This document shows positions 3,611 to 43,024 of a stretch of 64,000 nt of DNA, in pieces. The DNA is taken from the sequence record MZ189261.1. The stretch is one strand, 5' to 3'. Source of the DNA: Escherichia phage S143_2. How positions within the stretch are numbered: the stretch's first letter is position 1; every line of letters starts with the position of its first letter. The position numbers and the translations under genes are program-made. Under the pieces are notes generated by a model. It was not told the origin of the DNA, made no database searches, and saw nothing but the letters and a program-made list of their open reading frames with translations.

Positions 3611-5299
3611 TTATGAAACAGTCATTACCGTAAATCGTCCAACTTTGCTCATCTGAAGATGTTGTCCATAACGTTGAGGGTCATGGTCTCGATGAGAGAT
3701 AATGAACACATTAGTATTTTGTAAACTTCCAAGAATGGTATCTATAGCCTTAACAGCCTCAGAATCGACAGCACCATCAAAAACCTCATCAAGAATCAGA
3801 GTGTTGATTTTAACACCAGAGACCTTTTCAGCAATATCTCGCCATGTAAACAACAATGCGATATCGATACGTGCCTTTTCACCTTGACTAAATGAAGCAT
3901 AACTAAAATCTTCACGACCACGTGATTTTATAGATTCATTGAATTCTTCGTCAATAGAAAACACGTAATCAGCTTCCATGATTTTAAGATAATAGTTAAT
4001 CTGCTTGTTGAACAGAGGCACATATTTTTTAATGATAGCACCTTTAATACCAGAATCTTTTAACATATCTGTGATAATACCACGATGGTATTTTTCAAGA
4101 ACGATATCAGATTTTGTTTTAATGATTTTATCAAGTTCTTTTTGAAGCAAAGCTATCTCATCAGCATGGTCGATAAATTCCGCCGAGGCTTGTTCTATTG
4201 CAGCTTTAACTTTCTTAGCTTTATCAATAGTGGCAATCATTGCTTGTTTTTTGGTACGAATATCAGATGCAAGGTCCTGTTTAGTCTTAACATTAGCTCT
4301 ATATTCGTCCACTAGGACACTCAGATTATCTCTGTGGCAGGTAAGTTGCTCGAATGAGTGATTACATTCATGAAGCTTATCGGTAATCTTAGAGACAATA
4401 GGATCACCCTGGTGCAACTGTGATGCACAAGTAGGACATGTACCACCATCATGATACATCTTAATAACTTTGTTATATGAGTCAATTTTAGATTTAATCA
4501 AGAATGCTTCTTGTCCGATCTTGTTGAACGCCTCAGTAGGGTCTTCGTCAAGAACGATATTAAGTAGACGCTCGTTAGCTTCTTCGATTTCTGCTTTTAA
4601 TGAACGAGCTTCTTTGGCTAGGTCGTCATACATATTCTGTAGACGCGCTACATTATCACCAGATAATTTCTTTTGACGTTCGATATTCTCGTTATAAATC
4701 TTAATTTGTTGGATAATACCATCTTTCTTGGCATCGAGAACTTGTCCCTGGGAATTAAGTTCTCGAACTTGAGACTTATTGATTTTATCCATTTCAGCGA
4801 GTGTGCCGACTTCTAAAAGGTCTTCGACAAGTTTTCTACGAGCAGGGGTGCTAAGAGCCATGAAAGGGGTATACCCTGCCGTCCCAAGCACAACGATTTG
4901 TTTAAAAGACGCGTATGACATTCCGATGCTACGTTCAAATTCTTCTTGGAAGTCACGACTGCTGGCAGATTCATCAAGACGAACACCGTCAACGGAGATT
5001 TCGAAAATATTGGGCTTTTGGCCACGTTTAATGAAGTATTTTTTACCATCGAATTCCATCCAAAGCTCAACTAAGAGCTCTTTCTTGTTCGTGCTATTAA
5101 TGATTTGCCCTTTCTTAACATCACGAAATGGTTTACCGAAAAGTCCGAAAGTAATGGCTTCTAACATCGTAGATTTACCACCACCATTTTTACCGGTGAT
5201 TAATGTCTTTTGGACTTTATCTAATTGGATATCAATAGGATTCCCACCTACCGACATGATGTTTTGATAACGAACACGATTTAATTTAAATGATTTCAT
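3611..5299 (-). CDS. 46: recombination nuclease ATPase subunit gp46 (Rad50/SbcC-like)
   Basis: 562 aa; Walker A GKNGGGKST; long coiled-coil middle; CxxC hook (CPTC); T4 gp46 is 560 aa. Confidence 0.9.
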   Translation of the reverse strand: MKSFKLNRVRYQNIMSVGGNPIDIQLDKVQKTLITGKNGGGKSTMLEAITFGLFGKPFRDVKKGQIINSTNKKELLVELWMEFDGKKYFIKRGQKPNIFEISVDGVRLDESASSRDFQEEFERSIGMSYASFKQIVVLGTAGYTPFMALSTPARRKLVEDLLEVGTLAEMDKINKSQVRELNSQGQVLDAKKDGIIQQIKIYNENIERQKKLSGDNVARLQNMYDDLAKEARSLKAEIEEANERLLNIVLDEDPTEAFNKIGQEAFLIKSKIDSYNKVIKMYHDGGTCPTCASQLHQGDPIVSKITDKLHECNHSFEQLTCHRDNLSVLVDEYRANVKTKQDLASDIRTKKQAMIATIDKAKKVKAAIEQASAEFIDHADEIALLQKELDKIIKTKSDIVLEKYHRGIITDMLKDSGIKGAIIKKYVPLFNKQINYYLKIMEADYVFSIDEEFNESIKSRGREDFSYASFSQGEKARIDIALLFTWRDIAEKVSGVKINTLILDEVFDGAVDSEAVKAIDTILGSLQNTNVFIISHRDHDPQRYGQHLQMSKVGRFTVMTVS

Positions 5300-5550
5300 A
5301 TGTATTCTCTTCGAATGAAGTCCTCTACATATTTTAACATGTCATCCCTATCAGCAAAATATTCATCTAGTTCTGCATACATAACAACACCTGGTGCGTA
5401 CTCACAGGTAACATACATTGTTCCAAAGAAACGAGGAGTTGATTCCTCGTAATTCTCAGTCCATTCAACGATACCAATATAACCGTCACCAATACTAAAT
5501 TCATGACGATGGATTTCATAATCAGTCTTCGTCATTATACGCGTCCTCAA
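5296..5550 (-). CDS. hypothetical protein (between 47 and 46)
   Basis: 84-aa ORF with ATGA-type overlap to gp46. Confidence 0.5.
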   Translation of the reverse strand: MRTRIMTKTDYEIHRHEFSIGDGYIGIVEWTENYEESTPRFFGTMYVTCEYAPGVVMYAELDEYFADRDDMLKYVEDFIRREYI

Positions 5551-7306: not shown

Positions 7307-7589
7307 TAGCCTGACGAGTAGTAACCCACTGGATTTTAATTAACTTGTCATTATATGGTTGTCGTAGAATATCCCGAGATTTCTTAATAGCATATTCGTA
7401 AGCTTCGAAGTTGTTTTGAATTGCTGCTTCTTGAGCATGAGCATAAAGACGGTTTAGTTCAAAACGATTCTTTTTAAGAATCTTTTCGGATTTTTTACGT
7501 GCTTCAGCTTCATTTTTCTTTTGGATTTCTTGTAGCATTTTAGCTACTGCATCTTCTGCTTCTTTATTTTCAATAATCTCGGTAGTCAT
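7266..7589 (-). CDS. hypothetical protein
   Basis: 107-aa ORF downstream of gene 55. Confidence 0.45.
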   Translation of the reverse strand: MTTEIIENKEAEDAVAKMLQEIQKKNEAEARKKSEKILKKNRFELNRLYAHAQEAAIQNNFEAYEYAIKKSRDILRQPYNDKLIKIQWVTTRQAIEDIINGASSNKV

Positions 7590-7590
7590 A

Positions 7591-7806
7591 TTATCTCATT
7601 AAATTAAAATAAAAACGTCCATCCTCTTCAATACAGAACTCATACTCAACCGGAGTCCCATTTATTGAAAATGACACGTCATGTGGGTTCAAAGGGTCGA
7701 TGTCAAAATTAATTTTAAATTCACGACCCAACAGTTTTACCAAATAAGGGATTGCTTCGTCAAAAGGTTCTTCTAAGTAGTTAGAGATGTCAATTGTCAT
7801 CCTCAT
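7591..7806 (-). CDS. hypothetical protein (start uncertain)
   Basis: track ORF 7591..7884 overlaps gene 55 by 95 nt; internal Met ([10 protein letters not shown]) more plausible. Confidence 0.35.
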
Positions 7807-8347
7807 ATAAAAAATCCAAACTAGGCGAATCGCTAACAACTTCCTTCTTTTCAGCCCCAGGAGCTTTATAAGCGGATTCTTCATAATGCGTCATTTTATC
7901 GTAGATGTCTTGAATAAACGTTTCATCTACCAACGCTACCATATCATCGTCATGACTGTCGTAGACATTATGAACGAAGTAACTATATTTCTTTGCAACT
8001 TCCTTACGTTCTTTTTTGATACGTTGGACAAAAGCATTAAAACAAGCTCGAGTTATGTATGCATGTGGGTTATTGTACTTAGTTTCGTCGAAATTATGAA
8101 GTCCCTTAATAGAGGCTTCAATCCCATCTGCAATCATCTCCTGCTTCCAAGACTGGGTATATCCTGAAAAGTTGAAACGTTTGGACAGGCCTTCGGCGAT
8201 AAGCATAATTGCTAAACCGATGGTATCATTCTGACGAATAATTTTGTTTGGGTCTTTATTATTTAAGAGCTCCTTTTTCCACTCGATTATAGCGGCGAGA
8301 AGCTCTTTATTATTCACATAGTTATTTTTAGGTTTTTGTTCAGTCAT
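7790..8347 (-). CDS. 55: late-transcription sigma factor gp55
   Basis: 185 aa, same as T4 gp55; sequence NYVNNKELL...[40 protein letters not shown] matches T4 gp55. Confidence 0.9.
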
Positions 8348-35816: not shown

Positions 35817-36773
35817 TTATTTGAAAGGTTTTACCATATGGAAATTTTGTTTGAAACGTTTGACGTAATCATCATGTCCTAAGCTTTGGTACATACTTAC
35901 TACTTTGCTGTAGTTTTCCCAGGCATACTCACGGAACCAACCAGAGGTGATGCTTGTACAGACTTTTTCCAATGCCATCATAAAACTGGCTTCAGGGTTA
36001 ATTTTAAAGTCATTAGGAATTTGAGAACGTTCTAATGCTAGTACACATGATTCTTCGTATACACCGGCCAATTTGACCATTTCTGGTAACGATTCAAACT
36101 TCTCGCGTGAGGTCATGACTTCAGAACCGTCTTTCATATAAAATGTATACGCTGGACGGTCTGTTAGTGCAATGGCTTCATGAATAGTATCATGGTCATA
36201 CGTATAGATGTCATCTTTAAAGAACGCACTTTTAGAAGTGTCAAGAACTGGGTGAGCATAGTTCAAGGTTTCTTTCTGGCGTTTCAGCATAATTTCAGTA
36301 AGTTCATCGTTCAGTGTAACACCTTTACCACGAAGATACTGAATATGGTTCATAGTCTTTAAAAAGAATGGATTATTTTTCTTGAAACGATGAGACAACT
36401 TAATTGCAAGACATATCTCAGGAGTTGCCCAGTAAAACCCGTTCAAACGGTCTTTAGTCAAATTTTTCTTGGCGTATTTTAAAAGGTCATAAGAAGACGT
36501 GAAATCTTCAGGAGTGAGTTCACCTACTAATTCACGGACATTAGTGATTGCCGGAACAATATATGCTTCAAAATGAGTTTCGCGTCCATTATGGAAGCAT
36601 TTGAAAACTTGGACATCAGGGTTATCTTGATGAACATATACACCCATCATTTGATTTTTGAATGCATTCCAAGAACCTTGGTCTGCAATAAAGTCCCAGT
36701 CACTATTTTTGATAGCGTTAGAATCAATAAGACCATGATAGTGAAGTGCACGAGAACCAATAACTAACATCAT
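35817..36773 (-). CDS. nucleotidyltransferase-fold protein (second copy)
   Basis: 318 aa; N-terminal GSRALHYHGLIDSNAIKNSDWDF (G[SG]...DxD). Confidence 0.45.
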   Translation of the reverse strand: MMLVIGSRALHYHGLIDSNAIKNSDWDFIADQGSWNAFKNQMMGVYVHQDNPDVQVFKCFHNGRETHFEAYIVPAITNVRELVGELTPEDFTSSYDLLKYAKKNLTKDRLNGFYWATPEICLAIKLSHRFKKNNPFFLKTMNHIQYLRGKGVTLNDELTEIMLKRQKETLNYAHPVLDTSKSAFFKDDIYTYDHDTIHEAIALTDRPAYTFYMKDGSEVMTSREKFESLPEMVKLAGVYEESCVLALERSQIPNDFKINPEASFMMALEKVCTSITSGWFREYAWENYSKVVSMYQSLGHDDYVKRFKQNFHMVKPFK

Positions 36774-37103: not shown

Positions 37104-37301
37104 TTAGCAAGAATAACTAGACGATACCCAGCCTTGAACAGTGATACTATTGTGGGATAATGAGATCGCGTCCTGGAGATTCAGACCTGCGTTATCTTCA
37201 ATCCATAACGTAACTTCTTCGCGTTCTTCTGTTGCAATTTGGAACAGGTTTTCCAGAGCAGCTACTGCCGTACGTACAGCACAATCTAATTCACGAGACA
37301 T
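37104..37301 (-). CDS. small protein ending W-V-SSSYSC (paralog C)
   Basis: 65 aa; C-terminus QGWVSSSYSC. Confidence 0.5.
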   Translation of the reverse strand: MSRELDCAVRTAVAALENLFQIATEEREEVTLWIEDNAGLNLQDAISLSHNSITVQGWVSSSYSC

Positions 37302-37310
37302 ATGGTTTCC

Positions 37311-37583
37311 TTAGCAAGTGTGAGAAGATGCGATCCAACCACCAGTTTCGAGGCTTAGGTTGTAGTCGTATTGGTAAACGTCGGCCCATTCAGCATAGCC
37401 GTTTTTTGTACAACGTTCAAGGTCGGCTTTAAGCTGTCCGGGTGAATGATATGTTCCACCCATACCATAAGCTGGATACAAGTCGAATGTTGTGTTTTGT
37501 TTATCAGCAATTTCTTTGGCAGCCTCAATAGCTGCATAGATTTTTGCTACAGCTTCAGCCAATTCGGTTTGTTCTTTAGACAT
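37311..37583 (-). CDS. small protein ending W-I-ASSHTC (paralog B)
   Basis: 90 aa; shares N-terminal helix and YG.G.TY core with 37593..37898. Confidence 0.5.
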   Translation of the reverse strand: MSKEQTELAEAVAKIYAAIEAAKEIADKQNTTFDLYPAYGMGGTYHSPGQLKADLERCTKNGYAEWADVYQYDYNLSLETGGWIASSHTC

Positions 37584-37592
37584 AGTGATTCC

Positions 37593-37898
37593 TTAGCACA
37601 ACGCAGAAGACGAAACCCAAGCACCTTCAGTAATAACGTAACCGTTACCTTCACGCTTAACATCGCCACCATTATTTTCAATTTCATCTTTCATCCACTG
37701 GGATACGATTTCACCCTTAGGATAATAAGTACGACCGCTACCATAATCACCTACAGAAAATGATACGGCATATTGGTCTGCGATCTTTGTTGCTTCTTCT
37801 TCGATACGTTCAGCTTGATTCAGAAGTTTATAAATTGCGTCTGAAGCGGATTTGGCATCATTAAACTCTGGTACTTTAATTTCAATAATCTTACTCAT
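37593..37898 (-). CDS. small protein ending W-V-SSSALC (paralog A)
   Basis: 101 aa; C-terminus EGAWVSSSALC. Confidence 0.5.
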   Translation of the reverse strand: MSKIIEIKVPEFNDAKSASDAIYKLLNQAERIEEEATKIADQYAVSFSVGDYGSGRTYYPKGEIVSQWMKDEIENNGGDVKREGNGYVITEGAWVSSSALC

Positions 37899-39214: not shown

Positions 39215-39242
39215 AAGGAGGACCGGAGTCCTCCGTATTATT

Positions 39243-39836
39243 TTATTTCAAAGAGTTAATATATTCTTGTACATCAGCAGAAGTGGTTTCGACACCAGCT
39301 GGAGTACCATTGAACGTTTCAACACGAGTCAGAGTGTCTTCGATATCAACCTTAGTCAGTGCAGCGATTTCAATTACATCATCAGCCGTAGAGATACCAA
39401 GGGCATTAGCTGCTCGAGTTTCACGAATGTATTCGAGTTTGATTGCCAGATTCTGACGAGCATCGTCAAGTTCAACAACCTTACGAGCAATTTCAATTCG
39501 CATAGCGGCATACCCGTCAGCTTTTGTATTAAGTTGTTCGGCAGTTCGACGATACAGAAGACCAAGCTTGGCATGCATGGTAACATCTTGTCCTTCAGCC
39601 AGGAGCTTACGAATTTCACGTTCCTTAGAAGCGGCTTGCTTATTCTTTTCAATAACAAGTTCGCGAATACGTTTTTCTTCATTAATAGATTTAACAGAAG
39701 CCGTTTTTAGTTCTTTGATTTGGGTAATCAACTTATCTGCAGCTGCGTTATACTGTTCTTCGACAGTCAGATTTTTAGCCATAGCAGTACCCAGTTTAGT
39801 GCGGATGAATTCAACAAGTTTCTTCAGTGTGTTCAT
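39243..39836 (-). CDS. coiled-coil protein, possibly PspA/IM30-like (tentative)
   Basis: 197 aa from ATG 39836; long amphipathic coiled coil; weak resemblance to PspA family. Confidence 0.35.
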
Positions 39837-39871
39837 ATTATTACCTTTCAATTGGTGGTTTATTATCCAAC

Positions 39872-39906
39872 GAGAGCATTATACTCTGCTCTCAAGAGTT
39901 TGTAAA
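39872..39906 (-). promoter_or_regulatory. sigma70-type early promoter with palindrome flanking -10 (module family B)
   Basis: minus strand TTTACA-aactcttGAGAGCagag-TATAAT-GCTCTCgttggataataaa; paralog of 9275-9310. Confidence 0.55.
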
Positions 39907-40134
39907 TTATTTTTTAATCAAATTGACATAAAACTCGGCGTCTTCCGGGTGCATGCCTTCGCAGTATTCTTCAACCATGAACTTCTTAACAGCTTCATAA
40001 GGACCACTCAGATTAAGCTCAGTTGTCCAGAACTTGGAATCTTGGACTGAATCGATACGAACTTCAGGGTGTCGGTTGCGAATAACTTCTTCGGTGTATT
40101 CATAATCAACGACATCAATACTAACTTTAGCCAT
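39907..40134 (-). CDS. hypothetical acidic protein
   Basis: 75-aa ORF. Confidence 0.4.
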   Translation of the reverse strand: MAKVSIDVVDYEYTEEVIRNRHPEVRIDSVQDSKFWTTELNLSGPYEAVKKFMVEEYCEGMHPEDAEFYVNLIKK

Positions 40135-40180
40135 TTTATTTTCCTCTTGATTTGATGTGATTACTATAACATAAACTTAC

Positions 40181-40345
40181 TTAGATGTAAATTATTTCAA
40201 CGTCACCTTTAGCTGCTTTATAACCTTCAGCCCAAGATACAACAGAGTTTTTATCCGAGGATTCAAATTCAGGCATTGGACTTTCACCAATATTCACACA
40301 GTATGTTTCTTCATTTTCGTCAAACCAAATAATTAAAGTAGTCAT
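40181..40345 (-). CDS. hypothetical small protein (54 aa)
   Basis: ATG at 40345; MTTLIIWFDENEETYCVNIGESPMPEF...; below track cutoff. Confidence 0.3.
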   Translation of the reverse strand: MTTLIIWFDENEETYCVNIGESPMPEFESSDKNSVVSWAEGYKAAKGDVEIIYI

Positions 40346-40718: not shown

Positions 40719-40804
40719 AACATTTTCCTCATGTTTTTATAGGTCTATAGTAACACATCTAGGGAAGAAGTAAACAACTTTTTCAGTAAGTTATAGACCC
40801 CCTA

Positions 40805-40824
40805 ATGGGGACCGAAGTCCCCAT
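40805..40824 (-). other. stable stem-loop with UUCG tetraloop (AUGGGGAC-UUCG-GUCCCCAU)
   Basis: perfect 8-bp stem 4 nt after stop of 40828..41454. Confidence 0.45.
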
Positions 40825-40827
40825 TCT

Positions 40828-41454
40828 TTACTTACGAGTTTTTGCATACTGAGCAGCGTCAGCAGCCAAACGACCTGCCTGACGAAGTTTTTCTTTAATC
40901 GCATCGTGAAGTGGTTGAGTATACTTCAAACCTTCGATAGTCAAATAAAGACGATAAAGGTCTGGGGTGTCAAGGTTGTTGATATGTTGGCCATTACGAA
41001 GAATATTGAATTCACGAACGAGTGAAGATGTATCAGATTCAATATCACGAACAAGCGAAGATAGTTGTTTATATTTTTTTTCCAGGCTAGAAGTATCAAA
41101 CTTAAGAGCAGGAGCTTTAGGAGTTGCTTTTACTTCCGGCTTAGGCTCAGGTTTTGCTACTGCTTTAGGGGTCGCAGGTTTAGGAGTGGTAGGAGCAGGT
41201 TTCACTTTAGGCGAACCCGATTTAGCAGAAACACCACCACTAACAATATCTTTGAATGCTTTAGAAGCTCTGTAATATTCTTTTTGGCTGGAAGTGTCGA
41301 TACCGTACATGGCTTGAACGTTTTTGAAAAACTCTGTACTAGTTTTTGTACCAGAAATAGCATCGTAAGCAGCTTGCCATTTCTCTTTTGTCATACGTAC
41401 ACCGGCTTCGGTGATTACTTCCGTTTCGGCTAAAAATTCATTAAAAGTATACAT
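40828..41454 (-). CDS. Pro/Lys-rich protein with degenerate CTS-like leader
   Basis: 208 aa; N-terminus MYTFNEFLAE resembles CTS; central PKPATPKAVAKPEPKPEVKATPKAP low-complexity linker. Confidence 0.5.
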   Translation of the reverse strand: MYTFNEFLAETEVITEAGVRMTKEKWQAAYDAISGTKTSTEFFKNVQAMYGIDTSSQKEYYRASKAFKDIVSGGVSAKSGSPKVKPAPTTPKPATPKAVAKPEPKPEVKATPKAPALKFDTSSLEKKYKQLSSLVRDIESDTSSLVREFNILRNGQHINNLDTPDLYRLYLTIEGLKYTQPLHDAIKEKLRQAGRLAADAAQYAKTRK

Positions 41455-42192: not shown

Positions 42193-42269
<77 letters not shown>

Positions 42270-42273
42270 TATT

Positions 42274-42348
42274 TGGCGGACGTGATAGGATTCGAACCTA
42301 TAACCAATCGCTTAACAGGCGATCGCTCTGCCATTGAGCTACACATCC
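42274..42348 (-). tRNA. tRNA-Asn (anticodon GUU)
   Basis: 75-nt cloverleaf; anticodon stem ATCGC/GCGAT, loop CUGUUAA; T-arm GGTTCGAATCC; encoded CCA. Confidence 0.8.
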
Positions 42349-42352
42349 AAAT

Positions 42353-42439
42353 TGGTGGGGAGTGATGGAGTCGAACCACCCGAGTCGCAATGACAATGGA
42401 TTTACAGTCCACACCGCTACCTCTACGGGATAACTCCCC
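42353..42439 (-). tRNA. tRNA-Tyr (anticodon GUA)
   Basis: 87 nt with long variable arm; anticodon loop CUGUAAA; acceptor GGGGAGT/ACTCCCC; encoded CCA. Confidence 0.75.
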
Positions 42440-42451
42440 TAATTCATAATT

Positions 42452-42526
42452 TGGTGGCCCTGGGTGGAATTGAACCACCATCTGGCGATTATGAGTCGCT
42501 TGCTTGAACCTTCCAGCTACAGGGCC
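42452..42526 (-). tRNA. tRNA with CAU anticodon (Met or Ile2)
   Basis: 75-nt cloverleaf; anticodon loop CUCAUAA; position after Thr corresponds to T4 tRNA-Ile. Confidence 0.75.
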
Positions 42527-42527
42527 T

Positions 42528-42604
42528 TGGTGCTGATTGACGGAATCGAACCGCCGACCTTCTCATTACAAGTGAGTTGCTCTACCTACTGAGCTAAATC
42601 AGCA
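42528..42604 (-). tRNA. tRNA-Thr (anticodon UGU)
   Basis: 77-nt cloverleaf; anticodon loop CUUGUAA; T-arm GGTTCGATTCC. Confidence 0.8.
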
Positions 42605-42608
42605 AAAC

Positions 42609-42698
42609 TGGCGGAGGCGATAGGATTTGAACCTATGAGTCGCCGGAGCGACTGCCGGTTTTCAAGACCGGTGCATTAAACCACTCTGCCACGCCTCC
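42609..42698 (-). tRNA. tRNA-Ser (anticodon UGA)
   Basis: 90 nt with long variable arm; anticodon loop CUUGAAA; acceptor GGAGGCG/CGCCTCC. Confidence 0.8.
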
Positions 42699-42700
42699 AG

Positions 42701-42774
42701 TCTCCATACAAGGATTTGAACCTTGGGCCTCCTGATCCCAAATCAGGCGCTCTACCAAACTGAGCTACACGGAG
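42701..42774 (-). tRNA. tRNA-Pro (anticodon UGG)
   Basis: 74 nt; anticodon loop UUUGGGA; T-arm GGTTCAAATCC; CCA not encoded. Confidence 0.75.
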
Positions 42775-42784
42775 TAAATTAAAT

Positions 42785-42858
<74 letters not shown>

Positions 42859-42863
42859 AAATT

Positions 42864-42950
42864 TGGTGCGAGAAGTGGGACTCGAACCCACAAGGAAATC
42901 ATTCCGCAGCATTTTAAGTGCTGTGCCTTTACCAATTTGGCCATTCTCGC
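42864..42950 (-). tRNA. tRNA-Leu (anticodon UAA)
   Basis: 87 nt with long variable arm; anticodon loop CUUAAAA. Confidence 0.8.
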
Positions 42951-42951
42951 G

Positions 42952-43024
42952 CTGGGAATAAAGGACTCGAACCTTTGCATCCTGGAATCAAAATCCAGTG
43001 CCTTACCAACTTGGCTAATTCCCA
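42952..43024 (-). tRNA. tRNA-Gln (anticodon UUG)
   Basis: 73 nt; anticodon loop UUUUGAU; T-arm GGTTCGAGTCC; CCA not encoded. Confidence 0.75.

Follow-up and report, generated by a model that had tools for sequence, protein, structure and literature searches.

Introduction

T4 is the best-studied lytic phage, and about one third of its proteins are without function. One of them is the product of gene e.6, which in T4 and its close relatives is annotated as 'conserved hypothetical' or 'unknown function'. Here, we analysed the counterpart of e.6 in Escherichia phage S143_2 (sequence record MZ189261.1), within a stretch of 64,000 nucleotides that we refer to as the window, and we present evidence that the e.6 family is very probably related to the superfamily of PspA, Vipp1/IM30 and ESCRT-III. 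The role of PspA, as described in PMC4556811, is to keep the inner membrane tight under stress.

An original prediction, made from the letters of the window, had described the gene product as a 197-amino-acid helical protein with short stretches that resemble PspA, located behind a promoter and next to a block of membrane proteins, and had cautiously proposed that it could stabilise the inner membrane during infection. Our results support this hedged call at the level of homology.

Results

The window gene and its family

The open reading frame was confirmed, and its product is conserved and predicted to be almost entirely helical. Homologues always start at the methionine of an M-x-x-L-K-K motif, and because all of them begin there, the ATG at 39836 is taken as the start codon and the interval 39243-39836 as correct (Table 1); the same N-termini rule out a longer version of the reading frame that would start from a TTG at 39851. 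The protein has the same length as T4 e.6 (NP_049742, UniProt P39224; T4 69312-69905) and shares 88% identity with it, as it also does with e.6 of T2 and RB32. Within the Mosigvirus group, conservation is much tighter, the protein being 100-99% identical across many genomes and the DNA region 97-99% identical to that of phages such as HX01, SSE1 and JS09. PHROG 1203 ('unknown function') is matched over residues 1-197 with an E-value of 1.7e-86, the records that use T4-style names (RB32, PEi20, JS98) call the gene e.6, and the locus is laid out as in T4, with e.6 placed between the tRNA cluster and e.5, e.4 and e.3. Judged by its sequence, this gene corresponds to T4 e.6, itself uncharacterised, and is its orthologue in Mosigvirus.

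Using tblastn, homologues were found in 1,101 of 50,697 phage records, nearly always at full length, so that more than 1,100 phage genomes, from two families, have kept the gene; none of the function labels that these records carry is backed by support. Canonical PspA, by comparison, was found in two unannotated metagenomic contigs among the same 50,697 records.

Homology to PspA and Vipp1

A profile built from 22 close relatives of Tevenvirinae type (A1) was used for an exhaustive HMMER search over 1.84 billion representative proteins. Just 45 proteins were retrieved at E<=1e-3, the full-length ones measuring about 195-209 amino acids and the others being fragments, and canonical PspA was absent among these 45. 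The family of e.6 proteins is therefore small and closed, and those of its members that can be traced are encoded by phages. A deeper alignment (A2) comprised 42 sequences and included distant full-length representatives, down to 17% identity. Searched against 177,635 PDB sequences, A2 matched Vipp1 of Synechocystis (sll0617) with an E-value of 4e-5, residues 1-146 of the family aligning with residues 1-147 of Vipp1. The Vipp1 entries spanned E-values from 4e-5 to 1e-3, and eight of the nine best matches were Vipp1 or PspA, the remaining one being prefoldin alpha (E 8.8e-4).

When each A2 member was scanned against Pfam, the PspA_IM30 family (PF04012) was matched by five of the 42. Two of these, P0063 (39.0 bits, E 8.9e-10) and P0057 (35.1 bits), lie above the PF04012 gathering score of 33.9, with alignments covering profile positions 2-143 of 220, and no other Pfam threshold was reached by any of the 42 members; the other weak matches were to the coiled-coil families HAUS6_N, CCDC90 and BAR_3. 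The bridging member P0063 originates from Ackermannviridae-type phages (Kuttervirus and relatives). It matches the Tevenvirinae-type profile A1 with an E-value of 3.3e-17 and the window protein by BLASTP with an E-value of 1e-12 over 172 amino acids, the family-specific C-terminus included, and as a tblastn query it retrieves JS98 e.6 directly. By these matches, P0063 is a genuine relative of e.6.

The relationship was also addressed by comparing two alignments with hhalign. The PspA and Vipp1 alignment (A3) is shallow (Neff 1.6) because the search with E. coli PspA gave enterobacterial sequences only (at least 86% identity, among the 120 matches listed), and a deeper alignment on the PspA side would probably raise the score. 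Even so, A2 against A3 gave a probability of 91.3%, an E-value of 9.3e-7 and a score of 47.3 over 168 columns starting from residue 1. Controls aimed at coiled-coil bias used reversed and shuffled sequences, which preserve the coiled-coil composition. Reversed profiles gave less than 1% probability in hhalign, and 30 column-shuffled versions of A3 gave at most 2.0% with scores no higher than 20.6. Likewise, the A2 hidden Markov model scored the Vipp1 1-152 fragment at 29.0 bits (re-run with --max), compared with -3.1 bits for reversed Vipp1 and a mean of -2.9 bits (sd 2.3, maximum 7.2) for 500 shuffles. The original prediction thus understated the likeness when it spoke of short stretches, since the family profile is collinear over about 146-170 residues from residue 1. 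The outcome by which it was to be abandoned, no PspA-family match, holds for the single sequence only; once the deep family alignment is used, the comparison turns positive. We consider it highly likely that e.6 is homologous to the PspA/Vipp1/ESCRT-III superfamily.

Predicted structure and family features

Two AlphaFold2 models, with a mean predicted local distance difference test (pLDDT) of 75.7 (A1 model) and 78.4 (A2 model), agree on both long helices. In the A2 model, helix α0 (residues 2-22) is followed by α1 (25-80), a five-residue turn (81-85) and α2/α3 (86-145), the hairpin having pLDDT values of 85-96. A Foldseek search against 350,542 PDB chains placed Vipp1 at ranks 1-8 for the A1 model and 1-9 for the A2 model, with a probability of 1.00, followed by the archaeal ESCRT-III protein CdvB2; structure prediction, proposed as a check together with the original prediction, hence came out in its favour. 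In the BFVD fold search, the own family came first, including phages of Citrobacter, Serratia, Erwinia and Klebsiella, and the first match from outside the family was a Snf7 protein of Megaviridae (E 2.9e-3). Rank 11 was occupied by A0A172Q0S7 of Acinetobacter phage vB_AbaM_ME3, a 229-amino-acid protein that is annotated as PspA/IM30 and lies outside the e.6 family; phages may have acquired PspA-class proteins more than once.

Two features that characterise the PspA/IM30 family are present in the predictions: an amphipathic, cationic α0 helix at residues 2-22 and a long α1-α2/α3 hairpin with its tip near residue 80-85. With respect to the first, the hydrophobic moment (muH) of the first 18 residues is 0.43, compared with 0.42-0.49 for E. 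coli PspA and 0.54-0.61 for Vipp1. The first 22 residues carry a net positive charge in all 42 members (+1 to +5, mean +3.4), and beyond them the protein has a net negative charge (mean -5.7 across the 42). The N-termini of divergent members (MGILSRIKEF..., MSIFQRLKSIF..., MNIFKRLFRLF..., MNIFKRLFRLFEA...) resemble α0 of PspA (MGIFSRFADIV) and Vipp1 (MGLFDRLGRVV). With respect to the second, the turn of the hairpin is in register with that of Vipp1 and PspA in the sequence alignments, which need no gaps over residues 1-80. By our reading of the alignment, the most conserved positions of the family (I40, L43, R/K44 and E53) coincide with invariant positions of PspA and Vipp1, and a highly conserved segment of 10 residues just past the turn pairs with their 'LAREALARKK'. 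Further on, hhalign reaches a 12-residue segment of e.6 and places it on PspA 'LDEAMARFESF'; in a permissive run, whose alignment extends end to end, 'TLTRVETF' of e.6 falls on PspA 'AMARFESF' and the terminal 10 residues on 'ISEQLAQLKAK'. With low confidence, these alignments suggest an α4/α5 region that is full-length but shortened.

Transcription unit and expression

A candidate sigma-70-type promoter lies about 40 nucleotides 5' of the start codon (Table 1), and T4 and RB32 have the same arrangement. No late-promoter TATAAATA motif is visible upstream of e.6. On the other side, a GC-rich stem-loop lies within about 25 nucleotides past the stop codon in eight of eight other loci of the e.6 family (nine loci with the window), namely those of T4, RB32, Aeromonas phages CC2 and AS-gz, Enterobacter PF-CE2, Serratia 3M, Salmonella KE31 and a metagenomic contig. 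These stem-loops, whose loops are often UUCG- or GNRA-like, occur in Straboviridae and Ackermannviridae despite differing flanking genes. With its own candidate promoter and its own 3' stem-loop, e.6 thus behaves as a separate unit. The stem-loop might act in termination or in stabilising the mRNA, with a link to the high expression.

Table 1. Positions of the features discussed; numbering follows the window unless another sequence is named.
Feature	Position	Strand	Remarks
Coding sequence, T4 e.6 orthologue, 197 amino acids	39243..39836	minus	197 codons + stop; ATG 39836-39834, TAA 39245-39243; from open reading frame listing, sequence, PHROG 1203 and identity to T4 e.6
Shine-Dalgarno sequence GAAAGG	39844..39849	minus	7 nucleotides 5' of ATG; sequence reading
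Candidate sigma-70-type (T4 early-type) promoter TTTACA-17 nucleotides-TATAAT	39878..39906	minus	11/12 consensus matches; consensus match only
GC-rich stem-loop GGAGGAC-UCCG-GUCCUCC, then UUUUGG	39217..39234	minus	8 nucleotides 3' of stop; separates e.6 and e.5
T4 e.6	2313-2906 (T4 locus sequence examined)		Its stem-loop at about 2280-2310
Genes downstream of Kuttervirus-type e.6 homologues	4503-5386 (locus L005); 7391-8124 (locus L003)
Gene for Pfam Phage_FRD3 protein	39907-40134	minus	75 amino acids; E 1e-38
Sigma-70-like promoter of the Phage_FRD3 gene, TTTACA-17-TATAGT	40163-40191	minus	Extended TG
Three tandem small paralogous open reading frames	37104-37898	minus	65, 90 and 101 amino acids; just downstream of e.3
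Gene for 318-amino-acid protein	35817-36773	minus	DUF7277 + DUF7275 (Pfam E 1e-27, 1e-78); PHROG 2141; function unknown
Gene for 208-amino-acid protein	40828-41454	minus	PHROG 2280
GC-rich inverted repeat	40804-40825	plus	Just beyond 3' end of the 208-amino-acid gene
tRNA cluster	42193-43024	minus	10 genes: Arg, Asn, Tyr, Met/Ile-type CAT, Thr, Ser, Pro, Gly, Leu, Gln

Expression of T4 e.6 can be followed in the time-resolved omics data of Wolfram-Schauerte et al. 2022, in which it is classified as an early RNA and a middle protein (PMC9697503). The protein is detectable there from 1-3 min, long before the structural proteins. In Table S3 of that work, the label-free quantification (LFQ) intensity of T4 e.6 (P39224) rises from about 0 at 0 min to 2.6-9.6e8 at 3 min, 1-2.4e9 at 5 min and 4.6-6.5e9 at 20-30 min, and the table gives about 1e8 for e.5 and e.4, about 5e7 for e.7 and about 1.3e9 for NudE. 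The peak is around 20 times the level of host PspA and 50 times that of e.5, e.4 and e.7, intensities of different proteins being only roughly comparable. Of the T4 early and middle proteins whose published values we consulted, e.6 is among the more abundant. Host PspA stays flat at 2.6-3.7e8 from 0 to 30 min, PspB is at about 1e7 and PspC was not detected in the same table; by the flat PspA values of Table S3, T4 infection does not switch on the Psp system of its host.

Neighbouring genes

That e.6 stands next to a membrane-protein block is true only in rough terms. The next gene, e.5, has no predicted transmembrane segment (TM) and is set off from e.6 by the stem-loop; beyond it lie e.4 (two TM) and e.3 (one or two TM). 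These three genes accompany e.6 in Tevenvirinae only. In Aeromonas phages, Pseudotevenvirus and Ackermannviridae, the genes 3' of e.6 differ and have no shared homologue. A link between e.6 and the e.5/e.4/e.3 block was dropped, no neighbour being conserved across six lineages, and the neighbours contain no Pfam domains of PSP partners.

Directly after the e.6 homologue, phages of Kuttervirus type have a gene for a 186-239-amino-acid protein with an N-terminal TM, and then one for a small hydrophobic protein of 55-60 amino acids. These downstream TM proteins have no sequence relationship to e.4 and e.3 of T4. They could represent an analogous membrane partner or a coincidence, and are suggestive at most.

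Other elements of the locus are listed in Table 1. The Phage_FRD3 gene lies directly upstream of e.6 and occupies the place of T4 e.7. The three small paralogues have in common an MS(K/R) start and an invariant G-W-(V/I)-(S/A)-S-S-x-x-C end, and the largest of them matches PHROG 899 (unknown function). In the 208-amino-acid protein, a low-complexity linker rich in Pro, Lys and Ala (PKVKPAPTTPKPATPKAVAKPEPKPEVKATPKAP) joins two helical parts. The T4 homing endonuclease gene segB is not evident within the tRNA cluster of the window.

Discussion

What might e.6 do during infection? The explanation that we favour, and hold to be somewhat probable, is that e.6 belongs to the PspA/IM30(Vipp1)/ESCRT-III superfamily as a divergent member of compact size that is specific to phages, with a proposed membrane-stabilising role. 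On the role taken by itself, which is argued by analogy, our judgement is evenly balanced. In the mechanism that we propose, α0 would attach e.6 to the inner membrane from the cytoplasmic side, as in PspA and Vipp1, and the hairpin would self-assemble into a polymer that covers the membrane. This polymer would curb the leakage of ions and protons and thereby preserve the proton-motive force, so that the infected membrane would stay energised. The need for it might arise after DNA injection, during superinfection, or under damage to the envelope or damage inflicted by defence systems. T4 shuts off host transcription. In this situation e.6 would stand in for the host Psp response, which would be blocked by the phage shut-off of host gene expression; because the shut-off would prevent sigma-54/PspF-dependent induction of Psp, the phage would have to supply e.6 itself. 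We infer that the cationic α0, the early and very high expression and the absent induction of host PspA make a membrane role more plausible, and expression that is both high and early suits a structural role in stoichiometric amounts. By the same analogy, T4-type phages probably carry a membrane-stabilising protein of their own. A bolder version, which we put forward as tentative and regard as rather doubtful, is that Straboviridae and Vi1-type Ackermannviridae encode a miniature membrane-repair polymer of the ESCRT-III/PspA class, made within minutes of infection and in large excess over host PspA, which would replace the disabled phage-shock response and keep the infected cell energised in the face of damage by injection, of superinfection ('lysis from without') and of abortive-infection effectors that puncture the membrane.

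Several observations weigh against the favoured explanation. Taken alone, the window protein has no PspA match in the Pfam scan at E<=10, PF04012 being unmatched and only weak noise (spectrin, NifQ, HAUS6) being returned, and phmmer retrieved nothing from the PDB. Profile A1 reaches Synechocystis Vipp1 (sll0617) in the PDB at E-values of 1.5-3 only, in a collinear alignment (6-138 to 6-140). When the 13 most divergent members are removed from the deep profile, its score is 15.1 bits (E 0.13), yet above all 500 shuffles, and the hhalign probability is 38%, with an alignment that runs end to end (2-203 to 1-218). Statistical significance hence hinges on the divergent branch, because without these 13 members the profile is below threshold. 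The NCBIfam scan of all 42 members gave coiled-coil noise (SMC, prefoldin), with LiaH at a non-significant E-value of 0.005. E. coli PspA is scored by A2 at only 4.7 bits, for which reason the family appears nearer to the Vipp1/IM30 type than to host PspA, and in the Foldseek search E. coli PspA(1-144) is found at rank 44-48. The Foldseek scores against the PDB are modest (best E 7e-4, template-modelling score about 0.45-0.55). Spurious matches come easily with coiled coils, and the fold of a long helical hairpin is simple; given this simplicity, we take the Foldseek result as corroboration of the sequence evidence and not as independent proof. In addition, the C-terminal 50 residues or so are much shorter than α4-α5 of PspA and are modelled with low confidence, the A2 model showing three short helices (152-159, 166-173 and 186-196) at pLDDT of about 47-82 in residues 146-197. 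In known members of the family, the α4-α5 helices are needed for polymer contacts. Finally, a conserved partner gene, such as a membrane anchor among e.5, e.4 and e.3, was sought by tblastn and all-against-all BLASTP in six lineages and none was found, and no partner of the PspB, PspC, pspF or LiaI type is conserved across the lineages examined.

A different possibility is that e.6 is a true homologue of PspA/Vipp1 that serves to manipulate the host. It might co-assemble with host PspA or displace it, mimic PspA towards PspF, PspBC or a defence system that docks on PspA, or remodel the membrane in relation to lysis timing, lysis inhibition or vesicles. All the homology evidence is shared between this possibility and the favoured explanation. 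PMC11153139 describes a cyclic-oligonucleotide-based anti-phage signalling system (CBASS) in which the cyclase is kept inactive by conjugation to PspA and is freed on infection, and, with PspA being part of such an immune circuit, a mimic of PspA could disturb it. Proteins of host takeover and anti-defence are typically made early and in very large amounts, as e.6 is, and a C-terminus that diverges from that of cellular PspA would suit altered partners. Against this, the sequence indicates no specific partner, the family is more Vipp1-like than host PspA-like, which disfavours close mimicry, the cationic α0 of every member suits direct membrane binding, and silencing of PspF would add little when T4 already shuts off host transcription. 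We consider host manipulation unlikely.

Less probable still is the view of e.6 as a coiled-coil protein of a general kind, for instance a scaffold, an adaptor or a chaperone-like factor of the phage, whose likeness to PspA and Vipp1 is compositional or convergent and bears no relation to membranes. The silence of the single sequence, the sub-threshold score of the Straboviridae-only profile, the weak matches of members to other coiled-coil families in Pfam and NCBIfam and the presence of prefoldin alpha among the PDB matches are all in keeping with such a protein. They have to be set against the facts that members exceed the gathering score of PF04012 and of no other Pfam family, that the matches run collinear from the first residue, the turn being in register, and that reversed and shuffled controls of the same composition remain at background. 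Moreover, each of the two AlphaFold2 models puts Vipp1 first among all the PDB chains searched, and divergent members, among them those that start with MGILSRIKEF... and MNIFKRLFRLFEA..., have N-termini like α0.

A role as virion or host-range component, suggested by the database labels 'host specificity protein' and 'tail completion protein' (many GenBank/UniProt records, for example BFVD A0A5Q2F7S5), is scarcely credible, given that the labels come without evidence and other records term the same protein hypothetical, that the promoter is of the early type with no late motif in view, that T4 e.6 RNA is early and its protein is detectable well ahead of the structural proteins, and that Pfam, PHROGs and fold searches gave no similarity to tail or fibre families. 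Both labels were rejected as unsupported and contradicted by early expression; they look like propagated misannotations, and 'host specificity protein' in particular looks unfounded on e.6 orthologues and should be corrected.

In the literature, we found no paper that ties e.6, a phage-encoded PspA/ESCRT-III protein, or T4-like/Straboviridae and Vi1-like/Ackermannviridae phages to PspA. What is new is the occurrence of a known fold and family in a compact, virus-encoded, partner-less and early-expressed form. Placement in the superfamily turns an anonymous open reading frame into a testable hypothesis, namely that virulent phages use a protein that they encode to keep the host inner membrane intact and energised. 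The hypothesis touches on the old question of how a cell infected with T4 reseals and remains energised following injection and superinfection, and on the ways in which phages could survive defence systems that kill by permeabilising the membrane. With 197 amino acids, e.6 would be an unusually compact member of the superfamily and thus useful for defining the minimal requirements of PspA-type assembly. Should the idea of a phage membrane-repair polymer hold true, e.6 would become the first viral representative of the PspA branch with a defined function and would reveal an unrecognised principle of counter-defence.

How does the window protein compare with the systems already described? T4 e.6, as part of PHROG 1203, is its direct orthologue, with the same promoter and hairpin layout at the same locus and no difference of substance. 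ESCRT-III proteins (CdvB/CdvB2 and eukaryotic or giant-virus Snf7) have the hairpin fold that is retrieved after Vipp1 in both PDB and BFVD; e.6 differs in having no match to them at the sequence level, and the annotations of the loci that we examined mention no Vps4-type ATPase or MIM-like partner. Membrane scission, in which ESCRT-III acts, is an activity that we do not propose for e.6. PspA of E. coli and other bacteria (PF04012), the effector of the phage-shock response, belongs to the same superfamily and has the same order of helices, whereas the window protein fails PF04012, has no conserved neighbour of the pspBC, pspF or liaI type and shows no sign of a regulatory role through PspF binding. 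Expression also sets them apart, PspA being induced by stress and e.6 being expressed constitutively and early from a phage promoter. Vipp1/IM30 of cyanobacteria and chloroplasts (Synechocystis sll0617; PDB 7o3w, 6zvr, 8qfv and 9eom) gives the best match of the e.6 family both by profile and by Foldseek. Compared with it, e.6, known here from sequence and models, is virus-encoded under an early phage promoter, shorter (197 versus 267 amino acids), without the α6 extension and with a much reduced α4-α5 region, and the identity is about 15-19%. In common they have the N-terminal amphipathic helix, the α1-α2/α3 hairpin with its turn near residues 80-85 and, in our reading, a set of conserved positions in register, which comprises I40/L40, L43, R/K44, E53 and the 'AK/R..L..R/K' pattern after the turn.

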